Positions 12,348 through 30,771 of a stretch of DNA of 64,000 nucleotides are shown here, piece by piece (positions within the stretch are counted from its first letter, which is position 1; every line of letters starts with the position of its first letter). The translations under genes were made by a program, and so were the position numbers. The DNA comes from Acidimicrobiales bacterium. GTDB lineage: Bacteria > Actinomycetota > Acidimicrobiia > Acidimicrobiales > Bin134. The DNA lies in contig OZ242356.1 of assembly GCA_965208785.1 (NCBI GenBank), positions 2,562,929 through 2,626,928 of the forward strand. The letters run 5' to 3'. The notes beneath the pieces were generated by a model, which did no database searches, was not told the DNA's origin, and saw nothing but the letters and a program-made list of their open reading frames with translations.

Positions 12348-12361
12348 TGGAAACGATTCTA
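12348..12361. promoter_or_regulatory. LacI-type operator candidate O1 (TGGAAACGATTCTA)
   Basis: 46-59 nt upstream of the SDR-VOC-dehydratase-SDR-Cys-rich operon. Member of the 7-site motif family. Confidence 0.6.
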
Positions 12362-12450
12362 GGGCAGCTTGGACGATAGCACCGGAACCGAGACAGGCCA
12401 TTGGAGCGGGGCCGATGACATGGGCAATCGACGGTCGGCTCGCTGAGCAG

Positions 12451-12478
12451 GTTGCATCGAGGGCCAAACGTGCTAGCT
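12451..12478 (+). promoter_or_regulatory. candidate sigma-70-type promoter TTGCAT-16 nt-TAGCTT for the ABC importer operon
   Basis: Hexamers read directly from the sequence. Operator O2 lies 8 nt downstream of the -10 element. Confidence 0.35.
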
Positions 12479-12485
12479 TTTCGCC

Positions 12486-12499
12486 TAGAAACGTTTCCA
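12486..12499. promoter_or_regulatory. LacI-type operator candidate O2 (TAGAAACGTTTCCA)
   Basis: 33-46 nt upstream of the SBP start. The core GAAACGTTTC is a perfect palindrome. Confidence 0.65.
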
Positions 12500-12531
12500 G
12501 CCACCGTAGTGTGTGACTGAGGGGGAGCAAA

Positions 12532-13659
12532 ATGATGAGCAAGAGCCTCAAGAGACTGATCGCTTTATTGGCAGTCATTGCCCTGTTTGTGGCGGCGTGC
12601 GGCAACGATGACGATGCCGCTGACGAGCCTGCGGCACCGGAGGCCACTGAGGCGCCGGCCGCACCGGAGGCCACTGAAGCGCCCGCGCCCACCGAGCCGC
12701 CCCCGCCGCCTCTTCCCGAAGTGTGCCAGGAGCAGGACGGCACCGGCCTCAAGGTGGGCTATGGCGATCTGACCGCTGGCATTCCCTTCGTGACCCAGGT
12801 GTTGGACAACATCAACGAAGTGGCTGAAGCGTGCAACTTGGAAATCGTCTACGCCGACAACAACCTCGACGGCGAGACGGCCTTGGAGAACGCCCGCACA
12901 TTCGTGTTGCAAGACGTGGACGGAGTGATCGAATTCCAGATCGACGCCGGCATTGAAGCTGCGCTGTGCGAAGAGCTGCGGTCAGAGAAGCCGGATCTTC
13001 CGGTCATCGCAATCGATATTGCCCACCCGTCATGTGCCCTGTTCTTCGGGGCTGACAACGGCTACGCGGGCGAGTTGGCCGGCGAGGCTCTCGGCCAATG
13101 GGCTCAGGAGAACTGGGGCTGCGAGGTGGACCTGATCGTCACCATGGAATCCTTCGTAGTGGGGCAGGTGAACATTGATCGGGCCAACGGTATGGTCCGC
13201 GGCATCTCGAATGTGTGCTCGGATCTGGCATTCGGCGATTTCGAGAACTGGGCCCCCGAAGTGTCTGACTCAATCGTCACTCGCATCAACGGCGGCGGCA
13301 CCACCGACGGCGCCTTCCCGCTGGTGCTGGACACGTTCACGGCCAACTCCAACGCCCGCATTCTGGTGGTAAGCCTCAACGACGACATGGGCTTGGCCGC
13401 ACTGGCCGCGGCCAACGAGTTGGGCATCGCCGACAATGTGGCCATTGCCAGCCAGGGTGCAGATGCAACCATCCACGAGGAGATCCGCGAGAACCCGAAT
13501 TACATCGGCTCTACCGGATACTTCCCGGAGTCATACGGCACGTATGTGGTGCCCGCCATCATGAAGATGATCAACGGCATCTCGGTGCCAGATCCGCTCT
13601 TTGTTGATCACGTTCTAATCAGCGAAGACAACATCGACGATTATTATCCGGCCGGCTGA
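12532..13659 (+). CDS. ABC sugar-binding lipoprotein (CUT2 / periplasmic-binding-protein type I)
   Basis: 375 aa. Signal peptide plus lipobox LFVAAC, then a Pro/Ala/Glu linker and a ribose-binding-protein-like fold (LKVGYGDL..., VVSLNDDMGLAALAAA). GGGGGAG Shine-Dalgarno sequence. Confidence 0.9.
   Translation: MMSKSLKRLIALLAVIALFVAACGNDDDAADEPAAPEATEAPAAPEATEAPAPTEPPPPPLPEVCQEQDGTGLKVGYGDLTAGIPFVTQVLDNINEVAEACNLEIVYADNNLDGETALENARTFVLQDVDGVIEFQIDAGIEAALCEELRSEKPDLPVIAIDIAHPSCALFFGADNGYAGELAGEALGQWAQENWGCEVDLIVTMESFVVGQVNIDRANGMVRGISNVCSDLAFGDFENWAPEVSDSIVTRINGGGTTDGAFPLVLDTFTANSNARILVVSLNDDMGLAALAAANELGIADNVAIASQGADATIHEEIRENPNYIGSTGYFPESYGTYVVPAIMKMINGISVPDPLFVDHVLISEDNIDDYYPAG
12634..12687 (+). 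repeat. 2 x 27-bp tandem repeat encoding APEATEAPA in the lipoprotein linker
   Basis: GCACCGGAGGCCACTGA(G/A)GCGCC... occurs twice in tandem. Confidence 0.85.
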
Positions 13660-13697
13660 CGCAGCAAGGGTGAGCACCCCGAGTTGCAGGCAAGCCG

Positions 13698-14696
13698 ATG
13701 ACCACAACCGAAACTGAGCACCCGCAAGCCGGGGCGGCGGGAGAAACGCTGGCCCAACGGGCGTCGCGCCTTTTCATCTCGGTGCCTCCAGAAGCAGTCC
13801 TGCTTGCGGTGCTCTTGGCCATGGGCGGGTGGTTCTGGAACAGCTCCGAAGTGTTCATGACCACCATCAACATGCGCAACGTGCTGTTGTCGGTATCGGT
13901 CTTGGGCATCTTGGCCGCCCCGTCCACGCTTCTTTTGATTTCAGGCAATTTCGACCTGTCCATTGCCTCCAACGCGGCCATGTGCGGCGTGGCTGTGGCC
14001 ATGGTTGCCGACGGGCATTCCACCGCGCTGGCCATCTTTGTCGCGGTTATCGCCGGCCTCCTGGCGGGGGCACTCAACGGCCTTCTGGTCTCCGGGCTGG
14101 GCATCGCATCCATCATCGTCACGCTGGGCACCTTCCAGGCCTATCGGGGGATCGCCCGATTGATGGCCAACGGTCAGACAATCCGGCTTCGGGGGGAGAT
14201 CGACTTCATTACCGATCGGATAGTCGGAATCCCTACCCAAGTAGTGCTGTTCATCATCATCACGGCAATCACCATGTTCGTTGTCCGCTACACCCGATTC
14301 GGCCGGGCGGTGTATGCCATCGGGTCCAATTTGGTTGCCGCCCGCCTGGCCGGCATCCGGCAGCGTCCAACGGTGTTCGTGCTGTTTTTGGTGAGCGGGG
14401 TGATGGCTGCTCTGGCCGGTTTGATCTTGGCCTCGCAGCTAGACGCCGCATCTCCCAACGCCGCGACCGGTGACGAGCTGAAGGTGGTGGCCGCGGTGAT
14501 TCTCGGTGGCGCCAGTCTCTCGGGGGGCCGGGGCACGATTATTGGAACACTGCTGGGAGTGCTGATTCTGGGGGTGCTGCAAAACGGCCTCACCCTGCTG
14601 AGCGTGACGTCGTTCTGGCGGGATGTGGCGACCGGCACCGTGCTCATCGCCGCGGTCGGCCTCGACCGCGTGCGGGTCATGCTCGGCGGGCAATAG
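13698..14696 (+). CDS. ABC sugar transporter permease (RbsC/AraH-like)
   Basis: 332 aa, multi-pass hydrophobic. GGASLSGGRGTIIGTLLG segment typical of CUT2 permeases. Confidence 0.9.
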   Translation: MTTTETEHPQAGAAGETLAQRASRLFISVPPEAVLLAVLLAMGGWFWNSSEVFMTTINMRNVLLSVSVLGILAAPSTLLLISGNFDLSIASNAAMCGVAVAMVADGHSTALAIFVAVIAGLLAGALNGLLVSGLGIASIIVTLGTFQAYRGIARLMANGQTIRLRGEIDFITDRIVGIPTQVVLFIIITAITMFVVRYTRFGRAVYAIGSNLVAARLAGIRQRPTVFVLFLVSGVMAALAGLILASQLDAASPNAATGDELKVVAAVILGGASLSGGRGTIIGTLLGVLILGVLQNGLTLLSVTSFWRDVATGTVLIAAVGLDRVRVMLGGQ

Positions 14697-14701
14697 CCGC
14701 G

Positions 14702-16246
14702 ATGGAAGGACAACCCGACTCTGGGCCACTGCGAGTGGCCGGGCGCGCCCTGCGCAAGAGCTTCGGGGGAATAGAGGTTCTGCACGGAGTGGATTTGGAG
14801 GCGGTGGGGGGCAGGGTTCTCGCCCTTCTGGGAGAGAACGGCGCAGGGAAGTCCACTGCGGTGAAGATCCTGGCGGGCGACTACCGCAGGGACAGCGGCG
14901 AGATTCTGGTGAACGATCAGCCGGTGGTCATTCGCTCGCCGCGCGATGCCTCCGATTTGGGCATCCGGGTGATCTACCAGGAGTTCTCCGATGCCCCCGA
15001 CCTGACTGTGTCCGAAAACCTCTCACTCGGCAATCTGCCTCGCAATCGCCTGGGCCTGGTGGACTGGGCCGCGATGCGGAGTGACGCCGAGGCCATCCTC
15101 GATGAGCTGGGCATCAATCTGGACCCCAAAGCAATCGTCGGGTCGCTGAGGGTGGCCGAGCGCCAAATCCTGGAGATCGCCCGAGCGCTGGCCGGCGACG
15201 CCCGAATGCTCATTCTCGACGAGCCCACCTCCGCTTTGACCATAGAGGAGACGCAGACCCTGTTCTCGTTCATCCGGCAATTGAAGGCCCAGGGAGCAGC
15301 CGTCATCTACATCACCCACCGCTTGGACGAAGTGGAGGAAATCGCCGACGACGTCTTGGTCTTCCGCGACGGTTATGTGGTCGCCGAGGGCCCTCGCTCG
15401 TCATTCACCCGCCACGACATGGCGGAAGCCATGGTGGGGGCGAAGCTGGACGAGACGGTGGCCAATCTTCATGCCGATCATGCCGAGCCCGGCCAGCCCA
15501 TGCTGGAACTGAGCGGCGTCACCATCGAGCCCTTCTTCGAGAATGTGGATCTGACGGTGAGGAGCGGTGAAATCGTCTCGCTGTTCGGCCGGTTGGGATG
15601 CGGCTCCATGGAGTTGGCCGAGTCGGTCTTCGGGCTGAAGCGGCTTGATTCGGGAGAGATGACCGTGGCCGGGGTCGAAGGCCAGGTGCGGTCGCCGACG
15701 GCTGCCGCCCGGCGAGGCGTGGGATTTGTGCCGGTGGACCGGAAGGAGGAGGGCCTGCTGACCGTTCTCTCCGTGGCGGAGAACCTCAGCGTTGCCTCGT
15801 GGTCGCTCCTCACCCGAATGGGCTTGCTGTCACCCAAAGCATCACTGAAGGTGTACGAGCGGTGGCAGGACAGGCTCGCCATCCGAGGCACTCGGGGCGC
15901 CCGCCAGGTGGTGTCGACGCTGTCGGGAGGCAACCAGCAGAAGGTGGTTCTGGGCCGCTGGCTGGAGCGGGATTCGAAGCTCTTGGTGATGGCTGAGCCC
16001 ACCAGGGGAGTGGATGTGGGCGCTCGGGCCGAAATCTACCGGGTGCTGCGGGGATTCGCCGACGAGGGACTGGCCATCCTGGTTGTGTCGTCGGACATCG
16101 AAGAAGTGCTGCGAATTTCCGACCGCATCATCGTCATGTCCAGGGGCGTGGTCGTGGCTGAGCATCCGGCGGGAGGAGTGGATCGGGCTCGGCTGGTGCG
16201 AGAGGCTGCCGCCAGCCACCACGAAGCCGCCGCGACGGGGGGATGA
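14702..16246 (+). CDS. ABC sugar transporter ATP-binding protein (duplicated ATPase, RbsA/MglA-like)
   Basis: 514 aa. Walker A GENGAGKST, signature LSGGNQQKVVLGRWL, two nucleotide-binding domains. Confidence 0.9.
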   Translation: MEGQPDSGPLRVAGRALRKSFGGIEVLHGVDLEAVGGRVLALLGENGAGKSTAVKILAGDYRRDSGEILVNDQPVVIRSPRDASDLGIRVIYQEFSDAPDLTVSENLSLGNLPRNRLGLVDWAAMRSDAEAILDELGINLDPKAIVGSLRVAERQILEIARALAGDARMLILDEPTSALTIEETQTLFSFIRQLKAQGAAVIYITHRLDEVEEIADDVLVFRDGYVVAEGPRSSFTRHDMAEAMVGAKLDETVANLHADHAEPGQPMLELSGVTIEPFFENVDLTVRSGEIVSLFGRLGCGSMELAESVFGLKRLDSGEMTVAGVEGQVRSPTAAARRGVGFVPVDRKEEGLLTVLSVAENLSVASWSLLTRMGLLSPKASLKVYERWQDRLAIRGTRGARQVVSTLSGGNQQKVVLGRWLERDSKLLVMAEPTRGVDVGARAEIYRVLRGFADEGLAILVVSSDIEEVLRISDRIIVMSRGVVVAEHPAGGVDRARLVREAAASHHEAAATGG

Positions 16247-17718
16247 CGGGACCAGGCCGGGTTGCGGTTGGCCAATTTCTGCTGGAGGCCAACACCTTTA
16301 CGCCACTGCGGTCAGAGCTTGACATCTTCGCGGCCGCCGGCCTTCTGGAGGGGCCTGGACTCGTTCGGGAAGGTTTGCCCGACGATGAGTTGGCGGCGGC
16401 TTGGGATGGTCTGGTCGCCCGCGGGTTTACGCCGGTTCCCACGGTGCGAGCATGGGCCGGGGCCGGTCCTCCCCTGACCGCCGCGGCCTTTGAGCAGATC
16501 ATGTCGGCCATCGTCGAGCCGATGGAGCCGACGCTGGCCGGCGTGCTGCTCTCTCTGCACGGCGCATCGGCAGCCGAGGGGGTGGACGATCCAGAGGGCG
16601 TGATCTTGGAGGAAGTCCGTCGTCGAATCGGAGGCGGTGTGCCGATGGCCGTGACGCTGGACTGCCACGCCGGCCTCACTGCTCGAATGCTCGAGAACGT
16701 CGACATCATCACCGGCTATCGCACCGTCCCCCATGTGGACCTGGCGCGAACCGGCGCCCAGGCAGCCCAACTGCTGTGTGATGCCATCGACGGTCTCATA
16801 CGCCCGGTGGTAAGGCATGCGGCCATTCCCATGCTTGCTCCGGCTGACCGCCAGAACAACGACCTTGAGCCCTTCCGGTCTCTCATGGGGGGTTGCACCG
16901 TCGCCGAGCAGCACCCCGGTGTGCTGGCCACTGCCTTTTTCCCCTCCCATCCTTGGCGTGACGTGCCCGAATTGGGGTGGAGCACCTGTTGCACCACCGA
17001 TGGAGACCCCGAGTTGGCCGCTGAGACGGCGTCAAGTCTGGCGGTGGCGGTCTGGGCGGCCCGAGAGGAGATGATCGGCGGCCGCCGGCCTCCATTGGAC
17101 AAGGCATTGACTGAGGCGCTGGATGGCACCGCGCCGTTTGTGGTGGCCGATGCCGGAGACAGCCCCAGCGGAGGCTCGCCGGGGGATTCCACCGAACTGC
17201 TGCGAACAGCCGACCGGATGAAGGACCGGGCCATTTGGCTTACCGTGCGGGATCCTGAGGCTGCTGAAGCAGCCGCGGCTGCCGGTGTGGGCGCGACTGT
17301 CAATGTGAGCCTGGGCCGCGGGGGAGCAGGAGAGTACAACCAGACCACCCGGCTGGAAGCCGAGGTGCTGGCCATTCCCGAAGGGAGCTTCGCCTATACC
17401 GGGTCGCTGGCCATGGGCAAGACCGGTGATCTCGGGGTTGCTGTGTTGTTGGCTGCGGGGAAGATGCGGGTGGTTGTCCACAGCCAGACAGTCATGGTGA
17501 TCGATCCCGCCCCCTATGTGGCTGCTGGATTGGACCCGGCCCAAGCGGAGGTCTTGCAAGCCAAGTCGCACGTTAGCTATCGAGAGGGCTTCGCCCCGAT
17601 CACCACCAGAAGCGTGGTTGCCAACACGGGCGGGCCCACTGCGGCCGATTTGGGGTTGCTGGAGTATCGGCGAAGGCCTGTTCCCATGTTCCCGTTCGAA
17701 TCCGACGTCCGCTTCTGA
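16243..17718 (+). CDS. M81 / MlrC-like (microcystinase C family) metallopeptidase-like protein
   Basis: 491 aa. RVAVGQFLLEANTFTP N-terminus typical of the MlrC/DUF1485 family. ATGA overlap with the ATPase gene. Confidence 0.75.
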   Translation: MTGPGRVAVGQFLLEANTFTPLRSELDIFAAAGLLEGPGLVREGLPDDELAAAWDGLVARGFTPVPTVRAWAGAGPPLTAAAFEQIMSAIVEPMEPTLAGVLLSLHGASAAEGVDDPEGVILEEVRRRIGGGVPMAVTLDCHAGLTARMLENVDIITGYRTVPHVDLARTGAQAAQLLCDAIDGLIRPVVRHAAIPMLAPADRQNNDLEPFRSLMGGCTVAEQHPGVLATAFFPSHPWRDVPELGWSTCCTTDGDPELAAETASSLAVAVWAAREEMIGGRRPPLDKALTEALDGTAPFVVADAGDSPSGGSPGDSTELLRTADRMKDRAIWLTVRDPEAAEAAAAAGVGATVNVSLGRGGAGEYNQTTRLEAEVLAIPEGSFAYTGSLAMGKTGDLGVAVLLAAGKMRVVVHSQTVMVIDPAPYVAAGLDPAQAEVLQAKSHVSYREGFAPITTRSVVANTGGPTAADLGLLEYRRRPVPMFPFESDVRF

Positions 17719-17739
17719 CCCCGCCCTAGACCGGCCAAA

Positions 17740-18450
17740 TCACCCCATAGACCAGCCGCCGCTGATATCGATTGTCGCCCCGTTGACAAAGCTGGCTTGG
17801 TCGCTGGCAAGAAAGGCCACCACGTCGCCAACATCGCGGCCCTCGCCCATCCGGCCGACCGGAATCTGGGACAGCACCCGCTCCAGGAGATCGGGATCCC
17901 GCTCGATCTGCATTTGAGCCATGGGCGTGTTGATGCCTCCGGGAAGTACCGCGTTGACCGTTATGCCTTGCGGTCCGTAGTGGCGGGCCAACGATTTGGT
18001 GAGGGCCACCAGTCCGGCCTTGGATGCGGCATAGGCCGCCGCGTGGGAGATCGCGCCAGTTCGGGCAGCCACACTGGCCACGTTGACAATCCGGCCCCAT
18101 CCTCTGCGGCCCATCGGCCCGATCAATCCCTGCGCCAACAGGAACGGGGCCCGCAGATTGACGGCGATCGTCTCGTTGAACTGCTCCAAGGTCACAGATT
18201 CGAATGGCACTTCGTGCAGGACGGCGGCGTTGTTCACCAGCACGTCCACCGGGGGAAGGTTGTCGATCAGCTCGGCGCAGGCGTTTGGATCGCCGAGATC
18301 GACCGCATGGGTCGAAAGAAACGGTCCCTCTTCGTGCTCGATGACGTCTACGCCGACGACCTGGTGGCCGAAACCGCTCAGCGCACTGGCACAGGCCAAG
18401 CCGATTCCCCGAGCTGATCCGGTGACCAGGGCGGTACGGGTTTTGCTCAT
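17740..18450 (-). CDS. short-chain dehydrogenase/reductase (SDR)
   Basis: 236 aa. ALVTGSARGIGLA Rossmann motif and YAASKAG catalytic region. Confidence 0.9.
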   Translation of the reverse strand: MSKTRTALVTGSARGIGLACASALSGFGHQVVGVDVIEHEEGPFLSTHAVDLGDPNACAELIDNLPPVDVLVNNAAVLHEVPFESVTLEQFNETIAVNLRAPFLLAQGLIGPMGRRGWGRIVNVASVAARTGAISHAAAYAASKAGLVALTKSLARHYGPQGITVNAVLPGGINTPMAQMQIERDPDLLERVLSQIPVGRMGEGRDVGDVVAFLASDQASFVNGATIDISGGWSMG

Positions 18451-18497
18451 GCTGCCTCCTGGCGATCAAGGGTGATCCCGCTCCCTGAGGGAAGGGC

Positions 18498-18511
18498 TGG
18501 AAACGTTTCGA
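18498..18511. promoter_or_regulatory. LacI-type operator candidate O3 (TGGAAACGTTTCGA)
   Basis: Lies in the divergent gap between SDR (start 18450) and amidohydrolase (start 18552). Core GAAACGTTTC is perfect. Confidence 0.65.
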
Positions 18512-18551
18512 GTAAGGTAGCGGGCCAAGCAATTTCAAGAAAGGACCGAGC

Positions 18552-19439
18552 ATGGCCGAACGGCTTGACTTCGTCGACACCCATGTCCACTTTTGGGAGC
18601 GACCGCATCCGAAGCTCCAATGGGCCTGGCTGGCCCCCGATGCTGTGCATCCGCTCTTGGGCGAGATCAAGCCGCTCAAAGAACTGACCAAGTACGTGGT
18701 CGATGATCTGCGGGCCGACACCGACGGCCTGAACGTCACCAAGATCGTTCACGTCCAAGCCGCCATTGGCTCCGCCGATCCAGTGGGCGAGACGGAGTGG
18801 TTGCAGGAGATGGCTGACGCCACCGGCTGGCCGACCGGCATCACCGGGGATGCCCGGCTTCAGCACGCCGATGTGGAGGGGGTGCTCGAACGCCACTGCG
18901 AGTTCCCCATCATGCGGGGCCTGCGCGACTTCGCCGAAGGCGACTATCTCGCAGACCCTGCCTTCCATCGGGGCTATGCCCTGTTGGAGAAGCACAACCT
19001 GGTCTACGACCTAGACGTGACCTGGGAGGACATGGGCAAGGCCGCTGATCTGGCCCGCAAGTTTCCGAACATCATCTTGATCTGCGACCACGCCGGCTTC
19101 CCCCACGAGCGCAATGACGAGTTTCTGGCCAATTGGCGGAAAGGCATCGCGGCACTGGCCGAAGCCGACAATGCAGTGGTGAAGATCTCCGGTTTGGGCA
19201 TGGGCGACCAGATGGCCGGCGGCAACTGGACCGTCGACAGTATTCGCCCCTACGTACACGGCTGCATCGAGGCATTCGGAGTGGAGCGGTCGTTTTTCGG
19301 CAGCAACTGGCCGGTAGATCGGATGTACTCCACGTACCAGGTCATGCTCGATGCCTATGTGGAGTTGGTGGCCGACTTCTCTCGAGACGAGCAGGTGGCG
19401 TTGTTCTCGGGCAACGCGGAGCGCATCTACCGGATCTAA
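18552..19439 (+). CDS. amidohydrolase-2 family metal-dependent hydrolase (sugar-lactonase-like)
   Basis: 295 aa. The FVDTHVHFW N-terminal metal motif and the DHAG / NWPVD segments match the family that includes L-fucono-1,5-lactonase. Confidence 0.8.
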   Translation: MAERLDFVDTHVHFWERPHPKLQWAWLAPDAVHPLLGEIKPLKELTKYVVDDLRADTDGLNVTKIVHVQAAIGSADPVGETEWLQEMADATGWPTGITGDARLQHADVEGVLERHCEFPIMRGLRDFAEGDYLADPAFHRGYALLEKHNLVYDLDVTWEDMGKAADLARKFPNIILICDHAGFPHERNDEFLANWRKGIAALAEADNAVVKISGLGMGDQMAGGNWTVDSIRPYVHGCIEAFGVERSFFGSNWPVDRMYSTYQVMLDAYVELVADFSRDEQVALFSGNAERIYRI

Positions 19440-19482
19440 GCGACTCTGGAGCAGGAGTCTTCGAACTCCGGCGGCCGCGCCG

Positions 19483-20601: not shown

Positions 20602-20628
20602 CTCTTCGTCACTTGGTTCAAACAGTAC

Positions 20629-20642
20629 TGGTAACGTTTTCA
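20629..20642. promoter_or_regulatory. LacI-type operator candidate O4 (TGGTAACGTTTTCA)
   Basis: Divergent gap between the dehydratase-like gene (start 20601) and the LacI gene (start 20703). 10/14 palindromic. Confidence 0.55.
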
Positions 20643-21754: not shown

Positions 21755-21994
21755 TCAGTCGGAGGCGATGATGGCGATAGGAGCGCCAATGCCCACCTCA
21801 TCGTCCACGGCGACAAGGTGCTCGGCGAGCGTTCCCGACACCGGCGAGGGAACGTCGGAGTCCACCTTGTCGGTCTCGACCCGCAGCAAATCGTCCCCAG
21901 CGGCCACGGTGTCTCCAACCTCAGCGAGCCACTCCAGAACCACCACTTCTTCGGTGGTGTCGCCGAGCTTGGGAAGCTTGATGGTGAAACGCAT
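21755..21994 (-). CDS. free-standing lipoyl-attachment domain protein (79 aa)
   Basis: MRFTIKLPKLGDTTEEVVVLEWL...LLRVETDKVDSDVPSPVSG contains the ETDKV lipoyl-lysine motif. No E2 catalytic domain follows. An alternative TTG start at 22009 overlaps the E1-alpha stop. Confidence 0.8.
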   Translation of the reverse strand: MRFTIKLPKLGDTTEEVVVLEWLAEVGDTVAAGDDLLRVETDKVDSDVPSPVSGTLAEHLVAVDDEVGIGAPIAIIASD

Positions 21995-22005
21995 GGTGGG
22001 CGGGG

Positions 22006-22998: not shown

Positions 22999-24011
22999 GG
23001 GCTTCCTTTCTCTGCCTCCCACCAGGGGGGCGGAACCCGACCGGTTTGCAACAGCCCGGCGACTTGCTCGTCGATGTAGTCCGAAGACGGCATGTACCGT
23101 TCTTCGAGTTCCTTCCCGAAGGGGACCGGCACGTCGGGTGCGGTGATCCGCAGGGGAGGCCCCTCGAGCTCGCCGAACAGGTCGGCGGCCACCGCAGCAA
23201 CGATGTCGGCCCCCCATCCCCCGAACAGCGGATTCTCCTCTACCGTCACCAATCGACCGGTGCGGGCCACTGACTCATAGACCATGTCGCGGTCCCAGGG
23301 TTGGAGGCTCTGGAGATCAATGACTTCGGCAGACCACGAGGCCGCGGCTTCAGCCTGCGCGGCGGTGCCCACGGTGGACCCCAGCGCCACAATTGTGGCG
23401 TCGTTGCCGCCGACTACCTGGCGAGCTGTTCCCAGGGGGATTACACCCTCGGGTCCGGTGGTGACGTTCTCGCGTTGGGCGTACAGCCGCCGGGGCTCGA
23501 GCACCACGGTGGGGTTGTCGTCTCGGATGGCGGCCCGCATGAGTCCGTAGGCTGTGGCTGGGCCCGAGGCCACCGCCAGCTTGAGGCCGGGCGTGCCCAT
23601 CACCCAGCCTTCCAGCGTCTGCGAATGCTGGGTGCCGAATCCCAATCCGGCGCCTACCGAGGCCCGGACGGTGAGGGGGACGGTGACCCGCCCGCCCGAC
23701 AGGTAGTGGAACTTGGCTCCTTCGGTAGACAGCTGATCCAGTGCGACGCCTAGGAACTCCACGAACATGATCTCGACCACCGGCCTCAGGCCCGTGGCGG
23801 CAGCGCCTACTGCTGCGCCCAGAAAACCCATCTCGGAGATGGGGGTGTCTCGGACCCGAAGCGGTCCGAACTCGTCCAGCAAGCCGGCTGAAGTCTTGAA
23901 CGGCCCCTCGGCCACCGCCACGTCTTCACCCAAGACGATCACATCGGGATCAGCCCGCATTTCGTCGGCGATGGCCGCCGAAATGGCCTGGTTCATTCTC
24001 ATCCGGGGCAC
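22995..24011 (-). CDS. 2-oxoacid/acetoin dehydrogenase E1 beta subunit (transketolase-like)
   Basis: 338 aa. GTG start with AAGGAGGA 5 nt upstream. VIVLGEDVA...RVRDTPISEMGFLGAAVGAA...VVEIMFVEF. Confidence 0.9.
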   Translation of the reverse strand: MPRMRMNQAISAAIADEMRADPDVIVLGEDVAVAEGPFKTSAGLLDEFGPLRVRDTPISEMGFLGAAVGAAATGLRPVVEIMFVEFLGVALDQLSTEGAKFHYLSGGRVTVPLTVRASVGAGLGFGTQHSQTLEGWVMGTPGLKLAVASGPATAYGLMRAAIRDDNPTVVLEPRRLYAQRENVTTGPEGVIPLGTARQVVGGNDATIVALGSTVGTAAQAEAAASWSAEVIDLQSLQPWDRDMVYESVARTGRLVTVEENPLFGGWGADIVAAVAADLFGELEGPPLRITAPDVPVPFGKELEERYMPSSDYIDEQVAGLLQTGRVPPPWWEAEKGSP

Positions 24012-24087
24012 GGAATCCTCCTTGTTTCACAGTTCGCCGAAGAACCGGTGGCACGAGTAGCTGTCTACGCCGATTCGCACGCCGGCC

Positions 24088-25185
24088 TCAGCCGCCGATT
24101 CGAATCACAGCACCCGTCTGGGCGCTGCGAACCGCGGCGTCCACCACCTCCACAGTGCGGGCACCGAGATCGGCAGTTGAGCGGTTGGGGGCGCCTCGGC
24201 CCAGGGTGAGGTCGATCAGTGTGTCTGGCGGTCCCACACACTGGTAGAGGCCGGCATGGCGAGGCAGGTCGACTTTGAGGTCGAGCCCGTCTTCTCGGTA
24301 GAGCCACAGGAAGTCTCGCTCCAAATCGGCAATCAGCTGCCCTTCCGATCCGAAGATTCGGACTTGGAGCTGATGTCGGGACCACGGCTCGTCGGGGTCG
24401 TCGATGGCGTTGGCCGTTGCCGGACAGCTTGCTCCGCTTATCGAACCGGTTGCGCCCGACTGATAGCGCATCGAGATGGCGTCATGCATGTCGACTCGGG
24501 CGCTCAGGTTGTTCATAAATGCGAACACCTCTTGGGCCCGGTCGCCGGTCAGCCACATGGCCAGCCCCATGGCGTGCGAGATCTGAGCGGGGGCATATCC
24601 GCCTCCCGACACTCCCGGATCGGTCCAAGTCTCGGCTTCGGGAGCGAAGCCCTCGGCCGACCCCTCGTAGCCGCCACCGCCGGTCGAGGTGAGCAGCTCT
24701 CTGGTCCCCGATGCCATCGCCACCAAAACGTGCTCGACTTGGCCCACGCCGCCCTCGGACTCCATCAAGCGCTTGGCCTCGATCCCAAGCGGTCCATAGT
24801 TCCAGCCAAAAGACAACAGCAGGTGGCGGCCCAAACGCTCGGCGGTGTGGTGCAGATCCCAGGCATCGTCGGGGTCGACGGTGAAGGGCTTCTCGCACAG
24901 CACGTTGGCGCCCGACTCCATGGCCGCCTTGGCGTGCTCATGGTGCAGACCTGATGGGCTGGCCACGATCACGGCGTCGAGCCCTTGGTCCAAGGCGTCT
25001 CGGTAGTCCTCGCTTACATGGGCGAAGCCGAACCGGTCGCCAATGGCCTCCAGCGCCTCACGTCCCTTGCGCACGGCAGAGACCAGTTCGACATCGTCTC
25101 TCTCTGCCAAGACAGGAATGTGGTTGCTGACGGCCCACGACCCTGCACCAATGACCCCCACACGGACCTTTCTGCTGGTCGCCAC
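24088..25185 (-). CDS. Gfo/Idh/MocA-family NAD(P)-dependent oxidoreductase
   Basis: ORF 24088..26133 trimmed to GTG 25185 (GGGAGGA 7 nt upstream). KVRVGVIGAGSWAVSNHIP Rossmann motif and CEKPF segment. Confidence 0.85.
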   Translation of the reverse strand: MATSRKVRVGVIGAGSWAVSNHIPVLAERDDVELVSAVRKGREALEAIGDRFGFAHVSEDYRDALDQGLDAVIVASPSGLHHEHAKAAMESGANVLCEKPFTVDPDDAWDLHHTAERLGRHLLLSFGWNYGPLGIEAKRLMESEGGVGQVEHVLVAMASGTRELLTSTGGGGYEGSAEGFAPEAETWTDPGVSGGGYAPAQISHAMGLAMWLTGDRAQEVFAFMNNLSARVDMHDAISMRYQSGATGSISGASCPATANAIDDPDEPWSRHQLQVRIFGSEGQLIADLERDFLWLYREDGLDLKVDLPRHAGLYQCVGPPDTLIDLTLGRGAPNRSTADLGARTVEVVDAAVRSAQTGAVIRIGG

Positions 25186-25204
25186 GGTCGTCCTCCCTCT
25201 GCGC

Positions 25205-25218
25205 CGGTAACGTTTCCA
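25205..25218. promoter_or_regulatory. LacI-type operator candidate O5 (CGGTAACGTTTCCA)
   Basis: Divergent 63-bp gap between the Gfo/Idh/MocA gene and the SDR gene. Confidence 0.6.
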
Positions 25219-25248
25219 AGCGTAGAAGGCGAGCAAGGAGCGGGCAAA

Positions 25249-25995
25249 GTGGTCTCCAATGGGATGGCACAGGGGAAAGGGGTGGCCGGGAGGACGGCCG
25301 CGGTCACCGGCGCAGCCCGGGGCATTGGCCGGGCGGTGGCCGAATGCCTGGTGGACGGCGGTGCTCGAGTGGCCCTGCTCGACATCCAGGCGCCGACCGA
25401 CGAAGCGGCCCTGAATCAGTCTGACGACACGATGTTCGTGTTGTGCGACGTGACCGATGAGCAGTCTGTCGGCCACGCGGTCCGGCAAATCGAAGCGGTG
25501 TGGGACGGGGTGGACATCCTGGTCAACAATGCGGGGATCTTCGCCATTGAACCGCTGGAGCAGACCACGCTGGAGGGCTGGAACCGCATGCTCGCGGTCA
25601 ACCTCACGGGGAGCTTCCTGTGCAGTCGACGAGTCTTGCCCGGGATGCGCGACCAGGGGTGGGGCCGGATCATCTCCATGGGGTCGAGCGCGGGCAAGAC
25701 AGGCGGGTCGAAGAACACCGCGGCTTACGGCGCGGCCAAGGCGGGTGTCATGGCACTGGCAAAAGCCATCGCCACCGAATATGCCCCGTGGGGGATCACG
25801 TCGAACGCGATGGCGCCGGCGCTCATAGAAACCGACATGGTGGCAGGAATAGCCGACCTGGCTGATGGCATTCCAGTGGGGCGCCTCGGCCAACCGGCCG
25901 ATGTCGCCCATGCCGTGCGGTTCCTGGCCAGTGAAGAGGCGGGCTACATCACCGGCGAGGTGATGGATGTCAACGGGGGGTTCCTGATCGACTGA
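25249..25995 (+). CDS. short-chain dehydrogenase/reductase (SDR)
   Basis: GTG 25249 with AAGGAG 8 nt upstream; the in-frame ATG 25264 is an alternative start. AAVTGAARGIGRA Rossmann motif and YGAAKAG catalytic region. Confidence 0.85.
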   Translation: MVSNGMAQGKGVAGRTAAVTGAARGIGRAVAECLVDGGARVALLDIQAPTDEAALNQSDDTMFVLCDVTDEQSVGHAVRQIEAVWDGVDILVNNAGIFAIEPLEQTTLEGWNRMLAVNLTGSFLCSRRVLPGMRDQGWGRIISMGSSAGKTGGSKNTAAYGAAKAGVMALAKAIATEYAPWGITSNAMAPALIETDMVAGIADLADGIPVGRLGQPADVAHAVRFLASEEAGYITGEVMDVNGGFLID

Positions 25996-26067
25996 CGCGC
26001 ATGACGCGGGGCGGGTTGGGCCAGACCTGCTGGCAACGCTTCCCGGTGGGCGATAGCTTGCCTGGCC

Positions 26068-26382
26068 ATGGAACGCGCCTGCTTCACCTTCGAGATCTAC
26101 CCCGACGCCGCCGACGAGTACAAGAAGCGCCACGACGAGATCTGGCCTGAGCTCGTTGAGGCCATTCAGGCGGCCGGGCTCAAGAACTACTCCCTATTCC
26201 GCCGGGGGACTCAGGTCATCGCCTATGTGGAATGCCACCCTGACGTGGAGACGGCGTTCGGCAAGATCGGTGAAACCGAGGTCAATGGACGCTGGGCGAC
26301 GTGGTTCGAGGATGTGATCGTCTCCCTGGCCGACGACGACGGCAACCTGTACTGGGCCGACGAGGTGTGGCACTTGGATTGA
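26068..26382 (+). CDS. rhaM: L-rhamnose mutarotase family protein
   Basis: 104 aa. YKKRHDEIWPEL...AGLKNYSLF...WHLD pattern typical of the RhaM/YiiL family. Confidence 0.75.
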   Translation: MERACFTFEIYPDAADEYKKRHDEIWPELVEAIQAAGLKNYSLFRRGTQVIAYVECHPDVETAFGKIGETEVNGRWATWFEDVIVSLADDDGNLYWADEVWHLD

Positions 26383-26409
26383 GGAGATGGCACGGCCTGC
26401 CTTGGCCGC

Positions 26410-27828
26410 TCAGTGCGTGACGGCGATCAGCTCCACGCAGGTGTCCACCAGGATCTGCTCGCTCTCAGGGGCGATCTGCTCGACGAGGCCATACGAGTGG
26501 TGGGCGTAGTCGCATTCGTAGCCCCCGTCGGGATATTCCACGGCAGTGGGCAAATAGGTGAGCACGCCGTTCGTGTAGCCCGCGAACAGCGTGGTGGCCG
26601 CAACAGAGCGCCGCTTGACCTCGATGGCCAATTCTGAGAATGCCTCGCCGGGCATGGTGGCAATGACCGTGTCTCCAATCCGCATGGCTTGCAGGAACGC
26701 CGGAACTTGTGACGCAGTGTCGCCGCGGCGTGTCTGCTCGATGGCGTCTTCAGCCCAGTTGAGGTGGTACTCGACGGGGTTGAGTGCCACCTGATCAGCG
26801 CCGGACGACCGAATCCGATCTACTTCTTTCTGGTAGCCGTCCCGTTCGGCCTCAAGTTGGGCCAGAGTGGGGAGAGGTTTGAGGGGAAGCTGCACGGTGC
26901 GACCGCAGGCGGCCAGCGTTTGCACCGGTTGGGGATCGGCGGCCACCTGACGGTGCAGCACGATAGGGGTGACCGAGCCGTAGTCGATGCGCTCGATGCG
27001 GAGCTCAGTGGGAGTGAGCTGCTCGAGGACATGCAGCACTTCCACCCCTAGCTTGCGGCCGAATGCCACTTCGGGACCGGTGTGGTCGAAGAATCCTTCG
27101 AGCGGGAGCACGTTTCCGCAGGCCCCTTGCAAGAACAGGCACGTCGCGCCGGTCACTTGTTCGACCAGGTCGCGCATTGGGCCGGGATAATCGGGGTTCA
27201 CCCCGGCATCCTCCGGGCCGACCACCACCGGGTGGCAGGCGTAGCTGACCAGCACGGCGAGCGTCGAGCCGTCCAAACGGTCGATGCGCAGCACTCCCAC
27301 GTCACGGTCCACTGCCTTGTCGGGGTTCCAACCCAAGATCACCCGCCCCTCGGCGTTCTTCTCCCGCCGGTTCACTGCCAGATCCAAGGTTCCGACCCCA
27401 CCGGCGACTCGGACCGGTTCAAGCTGGGCCGCGGCTTGGGTGGCGACTTCTTTGATCTGCCGAGGAAAGGAGTCTATGAAGGCCAGCTCATTGGCGGATC
27501 GCGCTCGCTGCTGCCCGCCGATTTTCACACCCTGGGAATCGGTCATCGGGCCGGCATGGGTGTGGCTCACCCCGATCATGACGTGATCGGGAGAAGTGTC
27601 AATAGCGGCACCGATCTCCGCCCGCAAGCGGTCGGCATGATGGGGGGTCAGGAAGGGCACATCGGCGGCCAATATGGCCACCCGGGTGGGGCCCAACTCC
27701 ACAACCAACGCGGTGGCCGTGAGCCGGCCTCGAATTTCCGAGGCCGGCTCGACTCGTCGGGAATAACCCACCACATCAATTGGAACCGATGGGGTGATGT
27801 CGACACGGGAGACCCCGGCACTAAGCAT
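26410..27828 (-). CDS. neutral/alkaline ceramidase-like amidohydrolase
   Basis: 472 aa. RVDITPSVPIDVVGYSRR N-terminus and GVSHTHAGP zinc-site-like motif resemble the neutral ceramidase N-terminal domain. Confidence 0.65.
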   Translation of the reverse strand: MLSAGVSRVDITPSVPIDVVGYSRRVEPASEIRGRLTATALVVELGPTRVAILAADVPFLTPHHADRLRAEIGAAIDTSPDHVMIGVSHTHAGPMTDSQGVKIGGQQRARSANELAFIDSFPRQIKEVATQAAAQLEPVRVAGGVGTLDLAVNRREKNAEGRVILGWNPDKAVDRDVGVLRIDRLDGSTLAVLVSYACHPVVVGPEDAGVNPDYPGPMRDLVEQVTGATCLFLQGACGNVLPLEGFFDHTGPEVAFGRKLGVEVLHVLEQLTPTELRIERIDYGSVTPIVLHRQVAADPQPVQTLAACGRTVQLPLKPLPTLAQLEAERDGYQKEVDRIRSSGADQVALNPVEYHLNWAEDAIEQTRRGDTASQVPAFLQAMRIGDTVIATMPGEAFSELAIEVKRRSVAATTLFAGYTNGVLTYLPTAVEYPDGGYECDYAHHSYGLVEQIAPESEQILVDTCVELIAVTH

Positions 27829-27841
27829 GGGGGCATTGTGC

Positions 27842-27855
27842 CAGAATCGTTTCCA
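27842..27855. promoter_or_regulatory. LacI-type operator candidate O6 (CAGAATCGTTTCCA)
   Basis: Divergent 56-bp gap between the ceramidase-like and isomerase-like genes. An extra TGGAAA half-site lies at 27862..27867. Confidence 0.5.
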
Positions 27856-27884
27856 GAGTGTTGGAAAGAGAGAGGCGGAAAGGG

Positions 27885-29285
27885 ATGACTCCCCTAAAGA
27901 TCGGCCAATTGTCTGCGTATTTCGGACTGTTCGATGAAGCTATGCCGGCCGGGTTCCGCCAAACGCGCCGAGACTATGCCGCCGCGGTTGGCGACATGCT
28001 GGCGGCGTACGGTGAAGTCGTTGCGCCCGGTCTGGTGGACAACCTGGACAGCGCCGCTGAAGCGAACGAAGCGTTCGTCAAAGAAGGGGTGGACGTTGTG
28101 GTCTTCGCTCCCACCATGGCGGCGCCCCCCGGATGGGCGGCGCGGGCATTGGATGGCTTGGATGTGCCGGTTGTCGTGCTAGGGGCCCAGGAGAGCGGGA
28201 CTGTGCCCGACGACTACGACACCGAGACGGCCACCGCTCGCAGTCTGCCGGTGGGGCTGGTCATGTTCACCAATGTGCTTGTCCGGCGACGGCGGTCGTT
28301 CACCGCTGTGGTAGGCGAGTTGGGGTCGCCGACGCTGACAGTCTCGCTGGGCCGGGCCATGAGGGCAGCAGCGGCCGTAGCCACCATTCGCGGCCGGCCC
28401 ATTGCCCAAGTTGGCGAGGCCATCGGGGGCTACGACGATGTCATGGCCTCTGAGCAGGAGCTGGCCTTGCTGGGAGTGCGAACGGTGTCGATCACGGCCG
28501 AGAAGCTGACTGAGGCGTTCCAGTCGGTCTCGCCAACCCGGGTGAAGGCGGTTGCCGACGAGGTCCGGGCGACCGCAGACGCCGACGCGGTTCCCCCCGA
28601 GGTCTTGGACAGGTCGTGCCAGCTGAGCGCGGCGCTGGAAGACCTGTGTGATGCCTATCGGGTTTGCGGTGGGACGGTGAACTGCCACGGGCCGGTGATG
28701 CGCTGGAACCCGGGAGTGGGAATCACCGCGTGTTTGGGCGTCACCCGGCTCAGCGAGCGGGGCATCCCGTTCTCCTGCACCGGCGATGTCCCCACGGCCA
28801 TTGCGCTCTCGCTATGCAAGTCGGTGGCCGGGGCCGCGTTGTACTGCGAGCTGTATCAGATGGACTTCGCCGGAGACTGGATCCTGGTGGCCAACGGCGG
28901 GGAGGGAGATCCAACCGGCCGCGCCCCGGGGTCGGCGATACGCTTGCTGCCCGAGGACCACTATTCGGGAGAGCATGGCCCCGGTACCGCCTCGGCTTTC
29001 GAGCTGGCTGAAGGCCCGTCCACCTTGGTGAGCCTGACTCCGGCCGCAGCCGCTGTGGGCGGCTGGCTCTTGGTCGTGGCCGAGGGCGAGATCATCGGCG
29101 CACGCCATCGCCGAATGGAGGGGCCAAACGGCATGTTCCGGTTTTCTGCCGCGCCAGTGGCTGAGGCTTATCAGGCCTGGTGCCAGGCAGGCGCTACCCA
29201 CCATGCGGTGCTGGTGCCCGGGGCTCGTCAAGATGATCTGGCGTGCGTTGCCGATCTGTTGGGAATTGAGCTGGCCGCGGTCTAG
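27885..29285 (+). CDS. L-arabinose/L-fucose isomerase-family protein (putative sugar isomerase), paralog 1
   Basis: ATG 27885 with GGAAAGGG upstream. 466 aa. Overall pattern (N-terminal Rossmann-like VVVFAPTMA..., central CHGP, GDVPTA, C-terminal HHAVLVPG) resembles the AraA/FucI superfamily. The assignment is tentative. Confidence 0.55.
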   Translation: MTPLKIGQLSAYFGLFDEAMPAGFRQTRRDYAAAVGDMLAAYGEVVAPGLVDNLDSAAEANEAFVKEGVDVVVFAPTMAAPPGWAARALDGLDVPVVVLGAQESGTVPDDYDTETATARSLPVGLVMFTNVLVRRRRSFTAVVGELGSPTLTVSLGRAMRAAAAVATIRGRPIAQVGEAIGGYDDVMASEQELALLGVRTVSITAEKLTEAFQSVSPTRVKAVADEVRATADADAVPPEVLDRSCQLSAALEDLCDAYRVCGGTVNCHGPVMRWNPGVGITACLGVTRLSERGIPFSCTGDVPTAIALSLCKSVAGAALYCELYQMDFAGDWILVANGGEGDPTGRAPGSAIRLLPEDHYSGEHGPGTASAFELAEGPSTLVSLTPAAAAVGGWLLVVAEGEIIGARHRRMEGPNGMFRFSAAPVAEAYQAWCQAGATHHAVLVPGARQDDLACVADLLGIELAAV

Positions 29286-29308
29286 AAAGTGAAGGCGGAC
29301 TGGCCGGA

Positions 29309-30754
29309 TTACACCACGGTGCAGTCAACGTTTGCGAAATTGGCTACTGCGGCCACTGCTGATGCCAAGTGCCCAGGGGAGATGGCACTGTGGTGGTTGA
29401 CCCCGGAAGCCGTCCACCGGGCCCATGCTTCGGCCACTGACCCGTTGGAGAAGCGGAACACGCCTCCGACGGTGGGGTTGGCGGGCAGTTCTCGGCCGGT
29501 GATCTCCCCTTCGGCCACGACGAAGCCGAACCCTGACGGATGTTCCGGTTGGGGGGCGAACCCGACCAGCGATGCCGGCCCAGTCGGCAATTCGAAATGG
29601 GCCCGATACCCGGTGCGCTGATCGGCGTCATACCAGGGGTTGGGTCCCAGCTTCGGCACTCGGCCATCCGAGCACCAGTCCAGGTCATGCTCCCCTGAGT
29701 TGGCCACCGCCACCTCACCGGTCTTGAAGTCGATGGCCTCGATTTCGTGGTAGAGGGCCGCACCGGAAAGCTGCTTGGCCACCAGCATGGCCACTGCGGT
29801 GAGCACATCCCCGGTACACGTCCAAGGCACTCCCCGAGTGGTTTCGCAGCCCAGCCCGAAACAAGGTGTCAGTCCGGGGTCGGGTCCGAAGCGGATCTCC
29901 GGAACATGGCAGTTCATTGCTCCGGCGGCGAAATCGCCCTCTCGGTCCAGGGCCTCGAGTGCGGCCGCCAGACGAAGGGACCTGTCGAGGTCGTCCTCCG
30001 GTCCCGGTTCTATCTCAAATGAGCCGACCACCCGTTGGCGCCAAGAGGCGGCCTGGGCGTCGTCGACCGCGGCGTAGTGCCGCAGCACATCGTGTGGGGT
30101 CAGGGCTACGACTTCTATCCCCAGAGACCGCCCCAGTTCTTCGTCGTCGGCGTCGACGCATCCGTAGCCATCCAGGGGGCGGCCGACCCGAGCCAATCGA
30201 GCTCGGCGCAAGCGAGTCGCCACGGCTGCGGCTCGAAGCCGGTCGGCCACCTCGGCTGCGCCCCGCTCGCTCCCTTCGGGGGAGACCACCAGCTCGAAAG
30301 CTCGCCGGGTCCGGTGGAGCATGTTGGTGATCATCGGAGTGCCCACGGTCGCCCCCAGAGACGTGACATGACCAGCATTGAAGTCAGCAGGGATGACCGC
30401 CGACCTCTGCACCGCCCAGATGACGACCGGCCGAGGGAGATGATCGAGGAGGCCTAATGCATGAGAGGGAGGCACTGCCATCGACTGAACTACCAATACA
30501 GCTTCGGGGCCGCGGGCCGCGGCCTCTTCAGCGCCGCGGACGCCCTGTTCGGGACCGTCGACCAGTCCCTGCCAAACGACATCGATGTTCCGTTCTCCAA
30601 GGAGGTCACCCACAGACCGCAGCAGATTCTCGCGGTCACTTCGAAAATCTGGCCCGACGCTCGATTCCCAAAAATCCCAATAGGGAACGACGACTGCGGC
30701 TCTCGGCGCGGCCTTCTGGTGGTAGCCAGGCTCGCCATCGATCGGTATAGTCAT
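29309..30754 (-). CDS. L-arabinose/L-fucose isomerase-family protein, paralog 2
   Basis: ATG 30754 (MTIPIDG...). 481 aa. Colinear with 27885..29285 (MNCHVPE.., CTGDVLTAVAML, NHHSAISPGH). Confidence 0.55.
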   Translation of the reverse strand: MTIPIDGEPGYHQKAAPRAAVVVPYWDFWESSVGPDFRSDRENLLRSVGDLLGERNIDVVWQGLVDGPEQGVRGAEEAAARGPEAVLVVQSMAVPPSHALGLLDHLPRPVVIWAVQRSAVIPADFNAGHVTSLGATVGTPMITNMLHRTRRAFELVVSPEGSERGAAEVADRLRAAAVATRLRRARLARVGRPLDGYGCVDADDEELGRSLGIEVVALTPHDVLRHYAAVDDAQAASWRQRVVGSFEIEPGPEDDLDRSLRLAAALEALDREGDFAAGAMNCHVPEIRFGPDPGLTPCFGLGCETTRGVPWTCTGDVLTAVAMLVAKQLSGAALYHEIEAIDFKTGEVAVANSGEHDLDWCSDGRVPKLGPNPWYDADQRTGYRAHFELPTGPASLVGFAPQPEHPSGFGFVVAEGEITGRELPANPTVGGVFRFSNGSVAEAWARWTASGVNHHSAISPGHLASAVAAVANFANVDCTVV

Positions 30755-30757
30755 TGC

Positions 30758-30771
30758 TGGAAACGTTACCA
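30758..30771. promoter_or_regulatory. LacI-type operator candidate O7 (TGGAAACGTTACCA)
   Basis: Fills most of the 35-bp divergent gap between isomerase-like paralog 2 and Cys-rich paralog B. Confidence 0.6.

Follow-up and report, generated by a model that had tools for sequence, protein, structure and literature searches.

A LacI-type palindrome in the divergent promoter gaps of a putative sugar-catabolic cluster predicts a large local regulon in a sponge-associated Acidimicrobiales bacterium

The operators of the Escherichia coli repressors RbsR and PurR are even palindromes built around a AAACGTTT core, with CG at the center. LacI-family operators as a rule have this even, CG-centered form, and 72% of the regulators in this family are autoregulated (PMC4052901). 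In a survey of the family, 93% of the regulons contain no more than 20 genes and 69% are limited to one or two operons (Ravcheev et al. 2014, PMC4052901), and a regulon is termed 'global' when it has more than 15 genes and at least seven operons (PMC4052901). Here, we analyze a 64,000-nucleotide stretch of DNA (the window) from an Acidimicrobiales bacterium (assembly GCA_965208785.1, contig OZ242356.1, positions 2,562,929 to 2,626,928), in which seven copies of a LacI-type palindrome lie upstream of 24 genes in 12 inferred transcription units. We propose that these palindromes are the operators of a LacI-family repressor encoded in the same cluster, which would co-repress all 12 units including its own gene. 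Judging from the sequence, we put the probability of this reading at about 80%.

A palindrome in every divergent promoter gap of the cluster

An earlier note made from the DNA sequence had listed seven 14-bp palindromes in this region, and all seven are present, letter for letter, where it placed them (Table 1). Allowing up to three mismatches, TGGAAACGTTTCCA matches the window 10 times where 1.3 matches are expected, and none of 100 dinucleotide-preserving shuffles reached the observed count. The 8-mer TGGAAACG, which had been described as rare, present in six sites and never met inside a gene, occurs six times versus 1.6 expected; all six copies fall within the sites, and it is therefore never found within a gene. 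To score the motif, a weight matrix was built from the seven sites, palindromized and scanned across the whole window. The seven sites score 19.5-25.2 bits, with the runner-up position at 11.2 bits (position 9333). Left out of the matrix in turn (leave-one-out), every site still reaches 17.8-24.5 bits and is among the seven best matches, with the best non-site at no more than 11.7 bits. The runner-up is a three-mismatch match inside the SDR_a gene and a further such match at 6311 (7.7 bits) lies at the edge of a Fic-domain open reading frame, and both were rejected as background. The 14-bp palindrome proved to be the inner part of a slightly longer motif, as the consensus grows with its flanks to 16 bp, C-TGGAAACGTTTCCA-G. 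The central CG on which the LacI assignment had been based is invariant in seven of seven sites, and the even palindrome lies within the LacI-family operator range of 14-22 bp. Beyond 16 bp, the sites share no similarity with one another.

All seven sites fall in the non-coding DNA that makes up 6.25% of the window, an outcome with a probability of approximately 4e-9 under random placement. All six divergent promoter gaps of the cluster, which are 35-229 bp long, contain a site, and the gap at 12303-12531 holds two; all seven sites are thus in divergent gaps, rather than the five initially counted. No strong site is found in the convergent or co-directional gaps of the cluster, where the SDR_d-rhaM gap holds only a decayed 7.8-bit site, and the matrix scan found no strong site in the ~40 kb of the window outside the cluster. 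The proximity of the sites to start codons was described correctly, although the distances span 3-81 nt and not 4-75 nt.

Genes were mapped by assigning frames from third-position GC, refining the starts and annotating with Pfam (the window has a G+C content of 64.8%). The earlier estimate of about 25 genes in one putative regulon is close to the 24 genes and 12 units of this map, but the set spans 7940-32937, a single 25-kb cluster that extends beyond the proposed interval of 12348-30771. The LacI gene is, as proposed, the only transcription factor gene that Pfam scans of the mapped open reading frames detected in the window, and it does have a site in its own upstream gap (operator 4), with sites in the equivalent gaps of relatives. 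The earlier note had also named two computational outcomes that would speak against a regulon, namely matrix matches at similar density in coding DNA and a lack of conservation in related genomes. Neither was observed, because matches do not occur at similar density in the coding DNA of the window and the sites are found at the same gaps in relatives whose LacI proteins are 64-77% identical, while the surrounding gap DNA diverges. In addition, an Rfam scan of the window gave no matches, so no riboswitch competes as an explanation of the long first gap. Literature searches for the motifs TGGAAACGTTTCCA and GGAAACGTTTCC returned nothing relevant.

The LacI regulator and conservation of its putative operators

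The LacI protein has a PF00356 helix-turn-helix at residues 12-57 (54 bits, cutoff 27) and an effector domain that matches PF13377 (110 bits) and PF00532 (96 bits). It aligns over its full length with RbsR, PurR, CcpA and E. coli LacI, and its closest solved relatives are E. coli RbsR (176 bits) and PurR (~146 bits), with alignments that start at ATMKEV. At the sequence level, the hinge PNLLASSLRR aligns with PSAVARSLKV of PurR, and the leucine matching PurR L54 is present in all orthologues. The alignment with E. coli LacI covers residues 1-325 of 360 and leaves 10 query residues, and the C-terminal leucine-heptad tetramerization helix of E. coli LacI is not present in it. A dimer is therefore expected, and operators 1 and 2, which are 138 bp apart, are not expected to loop via a tetramer. 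The protein scores 199.8 bits against the NCBIfam RbsR equivalog, below the cutoff of 531, and is not an equivalog of any named regulator.

The same LacI protein is encoded on sponge-metagenome contigs of two metagenome-assembled genomes (GCA_028819295.1 and GCA_028820185.1) and on ENA ROBB21-1 scaffolds. Scans of genome and metagenome collections provided more divergent relatives, with LacI identities of 96% (L006), 76-77% (L007-L011 and L013) and 64% (L014). Those at 76-77% are labeled Acidimicrobiia, Acidimicrobiales or Candidatus Poriferisocius, which is a member of Acidimicrobiales; the published papers naming Poriferisocius are unrelated to this locus. In L006-L011 and L013, matrix sites occur at the same orthologous gaps and nowhere else in the 7-21 kb available from each. 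Gap alignments show each operator as a conserved island, and the enolB/LacI gap is otherwise largely unalignable. Between the window and L010, the sites are identical at 77 of 84 bases, versus no more than ~70% for the remaining gap DNA even with a gap-permissive alignment. Operator 7 is identical in all relatives and operator 5 is identical in L006, L008, L010, L011 and L013. Conservation extends to features that depart from the consensus, including the CAGAAT in the left half of operator 6 and the C at position 1 of operator 5. The part of the regulator that would read these sites is conserved with them, as the recognition helix SSVSRVL is invariant among LacI orthologues that are 49-96% identical overall. 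In L014, a CoA-transferase III gene is preceded at 60 nt by a 22.2-bit site, and lacI, which adjoins the lipoyl and E1 alpha genes, has a weak site upstream; this LacI-lipoyl-E1 linkage is retained in L014 and in the distant loci L022 and L023.

The motif also recurs well outside this group. Six distant loci (GC 61-71%) were reached via homologues of unkA, an uncharacterized gene of the cluster, and some of their assemblies are labeled soil metagenome or Gaiellaceae. These loci contain 13 matrix matches of at least 12 bits versus ~0.8 expected, and 11 of the 13 map in or at a promoter gap of a homologous gene, for example EamA/unkA, MR_MLE/LacI, MlrC/binding protein or the gap upstream of rhaM. 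The MR_MLE/LacI gaps of L022 and L023 provide equivalents of the putative autoregulatory operator 4.

The relatives differ in gene content around the operators. The block of importer, M81 and SDR_c genes (12532-18450) is missing from L007, L009, L010, L011 and L013, and in relatives without it SDR_b and the Amidohydro_2 gene share one operator (for example, L010 7634-7731). In the window, operator 1 retains the ancestral SDR_b spacing, its distance to the SDR_b ATG being that of the single site in the 76-77% relatives, and operator 3 retains the ancestral flank on the Amidohydro_2 side. This indicates that the block either entered the cluster at an operator or was lost through deletion between copies of the operator, and that it brought or kept its own operator (operator 2), which is present in L006 and missing together with the transporter block from L007, L009, L010 and L011. 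A further difference concerns the decayed eighth site ahead of the rhaM-like gene. Its orthologous counterpart reaches 13.9-17.0 bits in L008 (7046), L010 (16121), L013 (16128), L011 (16184) and L006 (16120), which suggests that a separate control point for rhaM was lost in this genome. An extra gene of ~290 aa, resembling a xylose-isomerase-like TIM barrel (AP_endonuc_2-type), stands between the E1 beta and GFO genes in L006, L008, L010, L011 and L013 (for example, L010 13266 to ~14120, minus strand); it is missing from the window, where the corresponding gap (24012-24087) is 76 bp. In the strain variant L003 (GCA_028820185.1), a 164-bp insertion in the ceramidase-like gene near operator 6 (~17020-17185) contains a run of N and low-complexity sequence, and was therefore dismissed as an assembly artefact.

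Predicted repression and its alternatives

In the proposed mechanism, LacI would act as a dimer of the RbsR/PurR type, with an N-terminal helix-turn-helix, a hinge-helix leucine that pries open the central CpG, and no tetramerization tail. Without its effector, LacI would bind C-TGGAAACGTTTCCA-G. The operators are predicted to overlap or abut a -10 element or a transcription start, on one side of the divergent gap or on both. Because they lie in very short divergent gaps in this position, a single bound dimer could block RNA polymerase and shut off two transcription units, and at operator 4 the repressor would regulate its own gene. A sugar or an early pathway intermediate would then release the repressor. 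Inducer release is an assumption based on the catabolic nature of the predicted targets and on the behavior of most family members, which bind DNA when ligand-free.

The promoter geometry is consistent with this mechanism. In 10 of the 12 units, TANNNT, the actinobacterial -10 consensus, either falls within the operator or lies no more than 8 nt away, against a background of 0.0012 per position per strand. The first six bases of operator 1 on the minus strand (TAGAAT) form a -10-like hexamer, operator 5 includes one (TAACGT) and abuts another (TACGCT), and operator 3 is kept in relatives together with an adjoining -10-like box, TAAGGT/TAGGGT. At 30723-30751, a promoter-like TAGCCA-17-TATAGT ends 6 nt before operator 7, so transcription would start at the operator itself. 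Two mRNAs may not have leaders at all, as a conserved CACAAT ends 6 nt before the ATG of the ceramidase-like gene and the isoB ATG is 3 nt from operator 7; both features suggest leaderless transcripts, which are common in Actinobacteria.

Could the palindromes be genuine operators that serve a different LacI-family regulator encoded elsewhere, for instance one of the carbon-catabolite type, with the local LacI controlling a subset of the units or none? The AAACGTTT core is common to many LacI-family operators, including those of E. coli RbsR, PurR and FruR, and at three of the distant loci with the motif (L019, L021 and L024) no lacI gene lies within 10 kb. Furthermore, our scan covers 64 kb, and the remainder of the genome may contain further sites or another LacI paralogue that shares this reading head. 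We nevertheless consider this alternative unlikely, since every lacI orthologue has a site in its own upstream gap (in the window, L006-L011, L013, L022 and L023, and weakly in L014) and the recognition helix does not vary across these orthologues. The linkage of lacI to enolB and to the lipoyl-E1 genes is also kept, and the strong sites of the window are confined to the cluster. It appears quite improbable that the local LacI binds these operators but acts in another mode, either with a co-repressor or as an activator of some units. Against such a mode, the genes have catabolic or transport functions, the majority of LacI-family regulators bind DNA ligand-free (PMC4052901), and operators that overlap or abut -10-like elements have a repressing geometry. 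In its favor, PurR, which is among the closest solved relatives, needs a co-repressor (PMC4052901), and the first gap leaves room for complex control, with two sites 138 bp apart and operator 1 at 170 nt from the start of the binding-protein gene. The conservation data already contradict a non-regulatory origin of the palindromes, whether as chance AT-rich promoter palindromes or as mobile-element remnants or recombination sites tied to insertion of the transporter block. Although the transporter/M81/SDR_c block is flanked by operator copies and missing from relatives, and promoter gaps are richer in A+T than coding DNA, five sites are kept at the same gaps in relatives that do not have the inserted block. 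Together with the shuffling result, the ~8-bit gap between sites and background, and the loss of similarity past 16 bp, this makes a non-regulatory origin highly improbable.

Several observations weigh against repression by the local LacI as proposed, beginning with the 64-kb scope of the scan and the three motif-bearing loci that have no nearby lacI. The organism is represented by a metagenome-assembled genome of an uncultured sponge-associated member of Acidimicrobiia, and binding and expression are predictions. Promoter assignments are consensus matches only, and a generic sigma-70 scan found 2 promoter-like sites versus 2.3 in shuffles, which is no enrichment; given that this is a high-GC actinobacterium, the scan is uninformative, with the exception of the site beside operator 7. 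NCBIfam equivalogs for LacI and nine enzymes all fall below cutoff, and the substrate and effector are consequently guesses. Finally, Pfam detected no terminal aldolase (KDR/KDF) and no diketo- or FAH-type hydrolase of the non-phosphorylative deoxyhexose routes in the window.

The predicted target genes and their comparison with known systems

The predicted operators and the units they would control are collected in Table 1. The order of the genes in unit 1 recurs in relatives, minus the glyoxalase gene.

Table 1. Predicted operators and inferred transcription units of the cluster (positions within the window).
Feature	Position	Strand	Score, context or annotation basis
Operator 1, TGGAAACGATTCTA	12348..12361	.	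22.7 bits; 45 nt upstream of SDR_b start (12302, minus)
Operator 2, TAGAAACGTTTCCA	12486..12499	.	25.2 bits, top site; 32 nt upstream of binding-protein gene start (12532, plus)
Operator 3, TGGAAACGTTTCGA	18498..18511	.	23.1 bits; divergent gap SDR_c (minus)/Amidohydro_2 (plus)
Operator 4, TGGTAACGTTTTCA	20629..20642	.	21.6 bits; divergent gap enolB (minus)/LacI (plus); putative autoregulatory site
Operator 5, CGGTAACGTTTCCA	25205..25218	.	20.9 bits; divergent gap GFO-E1-lipoyl operon (minus)/SDR_d (plus)
Operator 6, CAGAATCGTTTCCA	27842..27855	.	19.5 bits; divergent gap ceramidase-like gene (minus)/isoA (plus)
Operator 7, TGGAAACGTTACCA	30758..30771	.	24.2 bits; 35-bp divergent gap isoB (minus)/unkA (plus)
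Decayed eighth site, TGGCAACGCTTCCC	26031..26044	.	7.8 bits; 23 nt upstream of rhaM-like gene
Unit 1: SDR_b, glyoxalase-fold protein, enolA (enolase superfamily), SDR_a, unkA2	7940..12302	-	Pfam; internal gaps <=47 nt
Unit 2: sugar-type ABC importer (binding protein, permease, double ATPase) and M81/MlrC-like protein	12532..17718	+	Pfam
Unit 3: SDR_c	17740..18450	-	Pfam
Unit 4: Amidohydro_2, lactonase-like	18552..19439	+	Pfam
Unit 5: enolB (enolase superfamily)	19483..20601	-	Pfam
Unit 6: LacI-family repressor gene	20724..21740 (alternative start 20703)	+	PF00356, PF13377, PF00532
Unit 7: GFO/IDH/MocA oxidoreductase, E1 beta, E1 alpha, stand-alone lipoyl protein	21755..25185	-	Pfam
Unit 8: SDR_d and L-rhamnose-mutarotase-family (rhaM-like) protein	25264..26382	+	Pfam
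Unit 9: resembles N-terminal part of neutral/alkaline ceramidase	26410..27828	-	PF04734, 44 bits
Unit 10: isoA, arabinose/fucose isomerase-like	27885..29285	+	PF11762, 33 bits
Unit 11: isoB, isoA paralogue	29309..30754	-	no Pfam match
Unit 12: unkA (uncharacterized Cys-rich family) and Zn-dependent alcohol dehydrogenase	30790..32937	+	

The gene content suggests uptake and oxidation of a small sugar. The importer consists of a Peripla_BP_4 binding protein, a BPD_transp_2 permease and a double ATPase, which is the layout of monosaccharide ABC systems, and the binding protein is distantly related to galactofuranose and ribose binders. Given this monosaccharide-type importer and the absence of the importer/M81/SDR block from the 76-77% relatives, the single complex substrate suggested in the earlier note is not supported. 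The six SDRs of that note also resolve differently, as the dehydrogenases of the predicted set are four SDRs, one GFO/IDH/MocA oxidoreductase and one Zn-dependent alcohol dehydrogenase. The best NCBIfam match of the Amidohydro_2 protein is L-fucono-1,5-lactonase (107 bits, cutoff 400), and matches to rhamnonate dehydratase reach 90-102 bits (cutoff 393). enolB scores 461 bits against PDB entries 4h83, 3no1 and 3msy, which bear only the name 'mandelate racemase/muconate lactonizing enzyme' and no functional assignment. PDB sequence searches with enolA, Amidohydro_2 and the binding protein gave distant matches only, and those with unkA and isoB gave none. isoA and isoB are 35% identical, and isoB has weak matches to the sulfoquinovose isomerase SftI and to L-arabinose isomerase. 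In the distant loci the same families recur together, sometimes with an E2 catalytic domain, CoA-transferase III, a MaoC hydratase or an HpcH lyase, which indicates that the heterogeneous gene set is a real functional association. We read the set as most likely an oxidative pathway for breaking down a monosaccharide-size substrate; both the size of this substrate and its possible identity as a deoxyhexose-like aldose are low-confidence guesses.

Several further genes lie near the cluster or are related to it. Another importer with the same ABC layout (Peripla_BP_4, BPD_transp_2, double ATPase), at 57579-61546 (plus strand), has no operator, and nearby matrix matches reach ~5-6 bits. Within unit 7, the E1 alpha and E1 beta genes adjoin a stand-alone lipoyl protein of 84 aa (21755-24011, minus strand), with no E2 catalytic domain in the window; in the distant loci L022 (6877-9802) and L023 (16186-19103), the E2 catalytic domain (2-oxoacid_dh) is encoded by a gene of its own. 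At 4 kb outside the cluster, the window has a gene for an E3-like pyridine-nucleotide disulphide oxidoreductase (37035-38393, minus strand), which has no operator. A CoA-transferase family III gene (6526-7689, minus strand) is situated 250 bp downstream of unkA2 without an operator of its own. This gene may be a 25th member of the regulon via read-through, because its homologue in L014 (502-1742) has a 22-bit operator and its homologue in L023 (14439-15668) sits in a lacI-E1 operon.

Two proteins of the set belong to the unkA family. unkA (30790-31908, plus strand) and unkA2 (7940-9058, minus strand) are paralogues that are 39% identical, and the family comprises 646 homologues, of which the top 120 are 64-90% identical, with no Pfam, NCBIfam or PDB sequence match. 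The invariant residues include five cysteines and one histidine (C238, C280, C283, H285, C286 and C323), which suggest that unkA may carry a metal or Fe-S site. Its AlphaFold2 model is confident (pLDDT 88.6, pTM 0.88), and a Foldseek search of the model against the PDB found no match (best E 0.67, TM <0.3), so no function can be transferred to it.

It is possible, though somewhat short of probable, that the motif marks a widespread and uncharacterized catabolic pathway of uncultured Actinomycetota and other metagenome bacteria, forming a new route from a sugar to acyl-CoA. The core of this route would comprise a RhaM-type mutarotase, the Pfam-less isomerase-like protein, Zn-dependent alcohol dehydrogenase, SDR and enolase-superfamily enzymes, and the unkA family. 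Certain genomes would link it to CoA-transferase steps as well as to an E1/lipoyl(/E2) module resembling 2-oxoacid dehydrogenases. If this is the case, the regulon signature is ready for finding further members of the pathway. More generally, the motif is a cheap and specific signature that groups ~24 poorly annotated genes of an uncultured sponge symbiont. As it recurs in other metagenome loci, it could define membership of an uncharacterized sugar-catabolic pathway and prioritize the unkA family, the isomerase-like paralogues and the E1/lipoyl module for biochemistry. The cluster also offers a compact example of single operators predicted to serve two divergent promoters, some of them probably leaderless, in gaps down to 35 bp.

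Oxidative non-phosphorylative routes for L-rhamnose and L-fucose have been outlined (PMC3870299), and the cluster resembles them in its RhaM-family mutarotase, SDRs, cog3618-type Amidohydro_2 protein and enolase-superfamily dehydratase-like proteins, a likeness at the family level only. The E1 alpha/beta and lipoyl proteins, isoA and isoB, unkA and unkA2, the ceramidase-like protein and the M81/MlrC protein have no place in these routes. Among regulators, the local LacI resembles E. coli RbsR and PurR in its helix-turn-helix, hinge helix with conserved leucine, and sugar-binding core. However, its recognition helix reads ALSSVSRVLN rather than STSTVSHVIN as on the RbsR/PurR side, the outer operator positions (TGG...CCA) also differ, and it is predicted to control 12 units instead of one operon. 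The locus shares the central-CG palindrome, predicted autoregulation and a cluster for sugar uptake and catabolism with the local LacI regulons that comparative genomics has reconstructed computationally across many hundreds of bacteria (PMC4052901), including that of the LacI-type RhaR of Actinomycetales (PMC3870299). It has no canonical rhaA, rhaB, rhaD or rhaEW, and its sites are closer to start codons (3-81 nt) than the usual 30-140 nt. At 24 genes and 12 units, the putative regulon is unusually large compared with the local regulons surveyed, yet it forms one cluster.

By the threshold for size, the putative regulon would count as global, like those of CcpA, FruR/Cra, PurR, GapR, PckR and GluR. 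The genes in the window are heterogeneous, but they recur together in distant genomes, which would fit one extended pathway. Unlike the targets of global regulators, those seen here are contiguous and have the appearance of one extended pathway, and the regulator gene is among its own predicted targets, which is the behavior of a local, autoregulated repressor. The predicted mechanism is that of a textbook LacI-type operator and repressor, with nothing new in the regulation itself. What is unusual is the size of the regulon and its compact shared operators, and the interest lies mainly in the uncharacterized pathway that they delimit.

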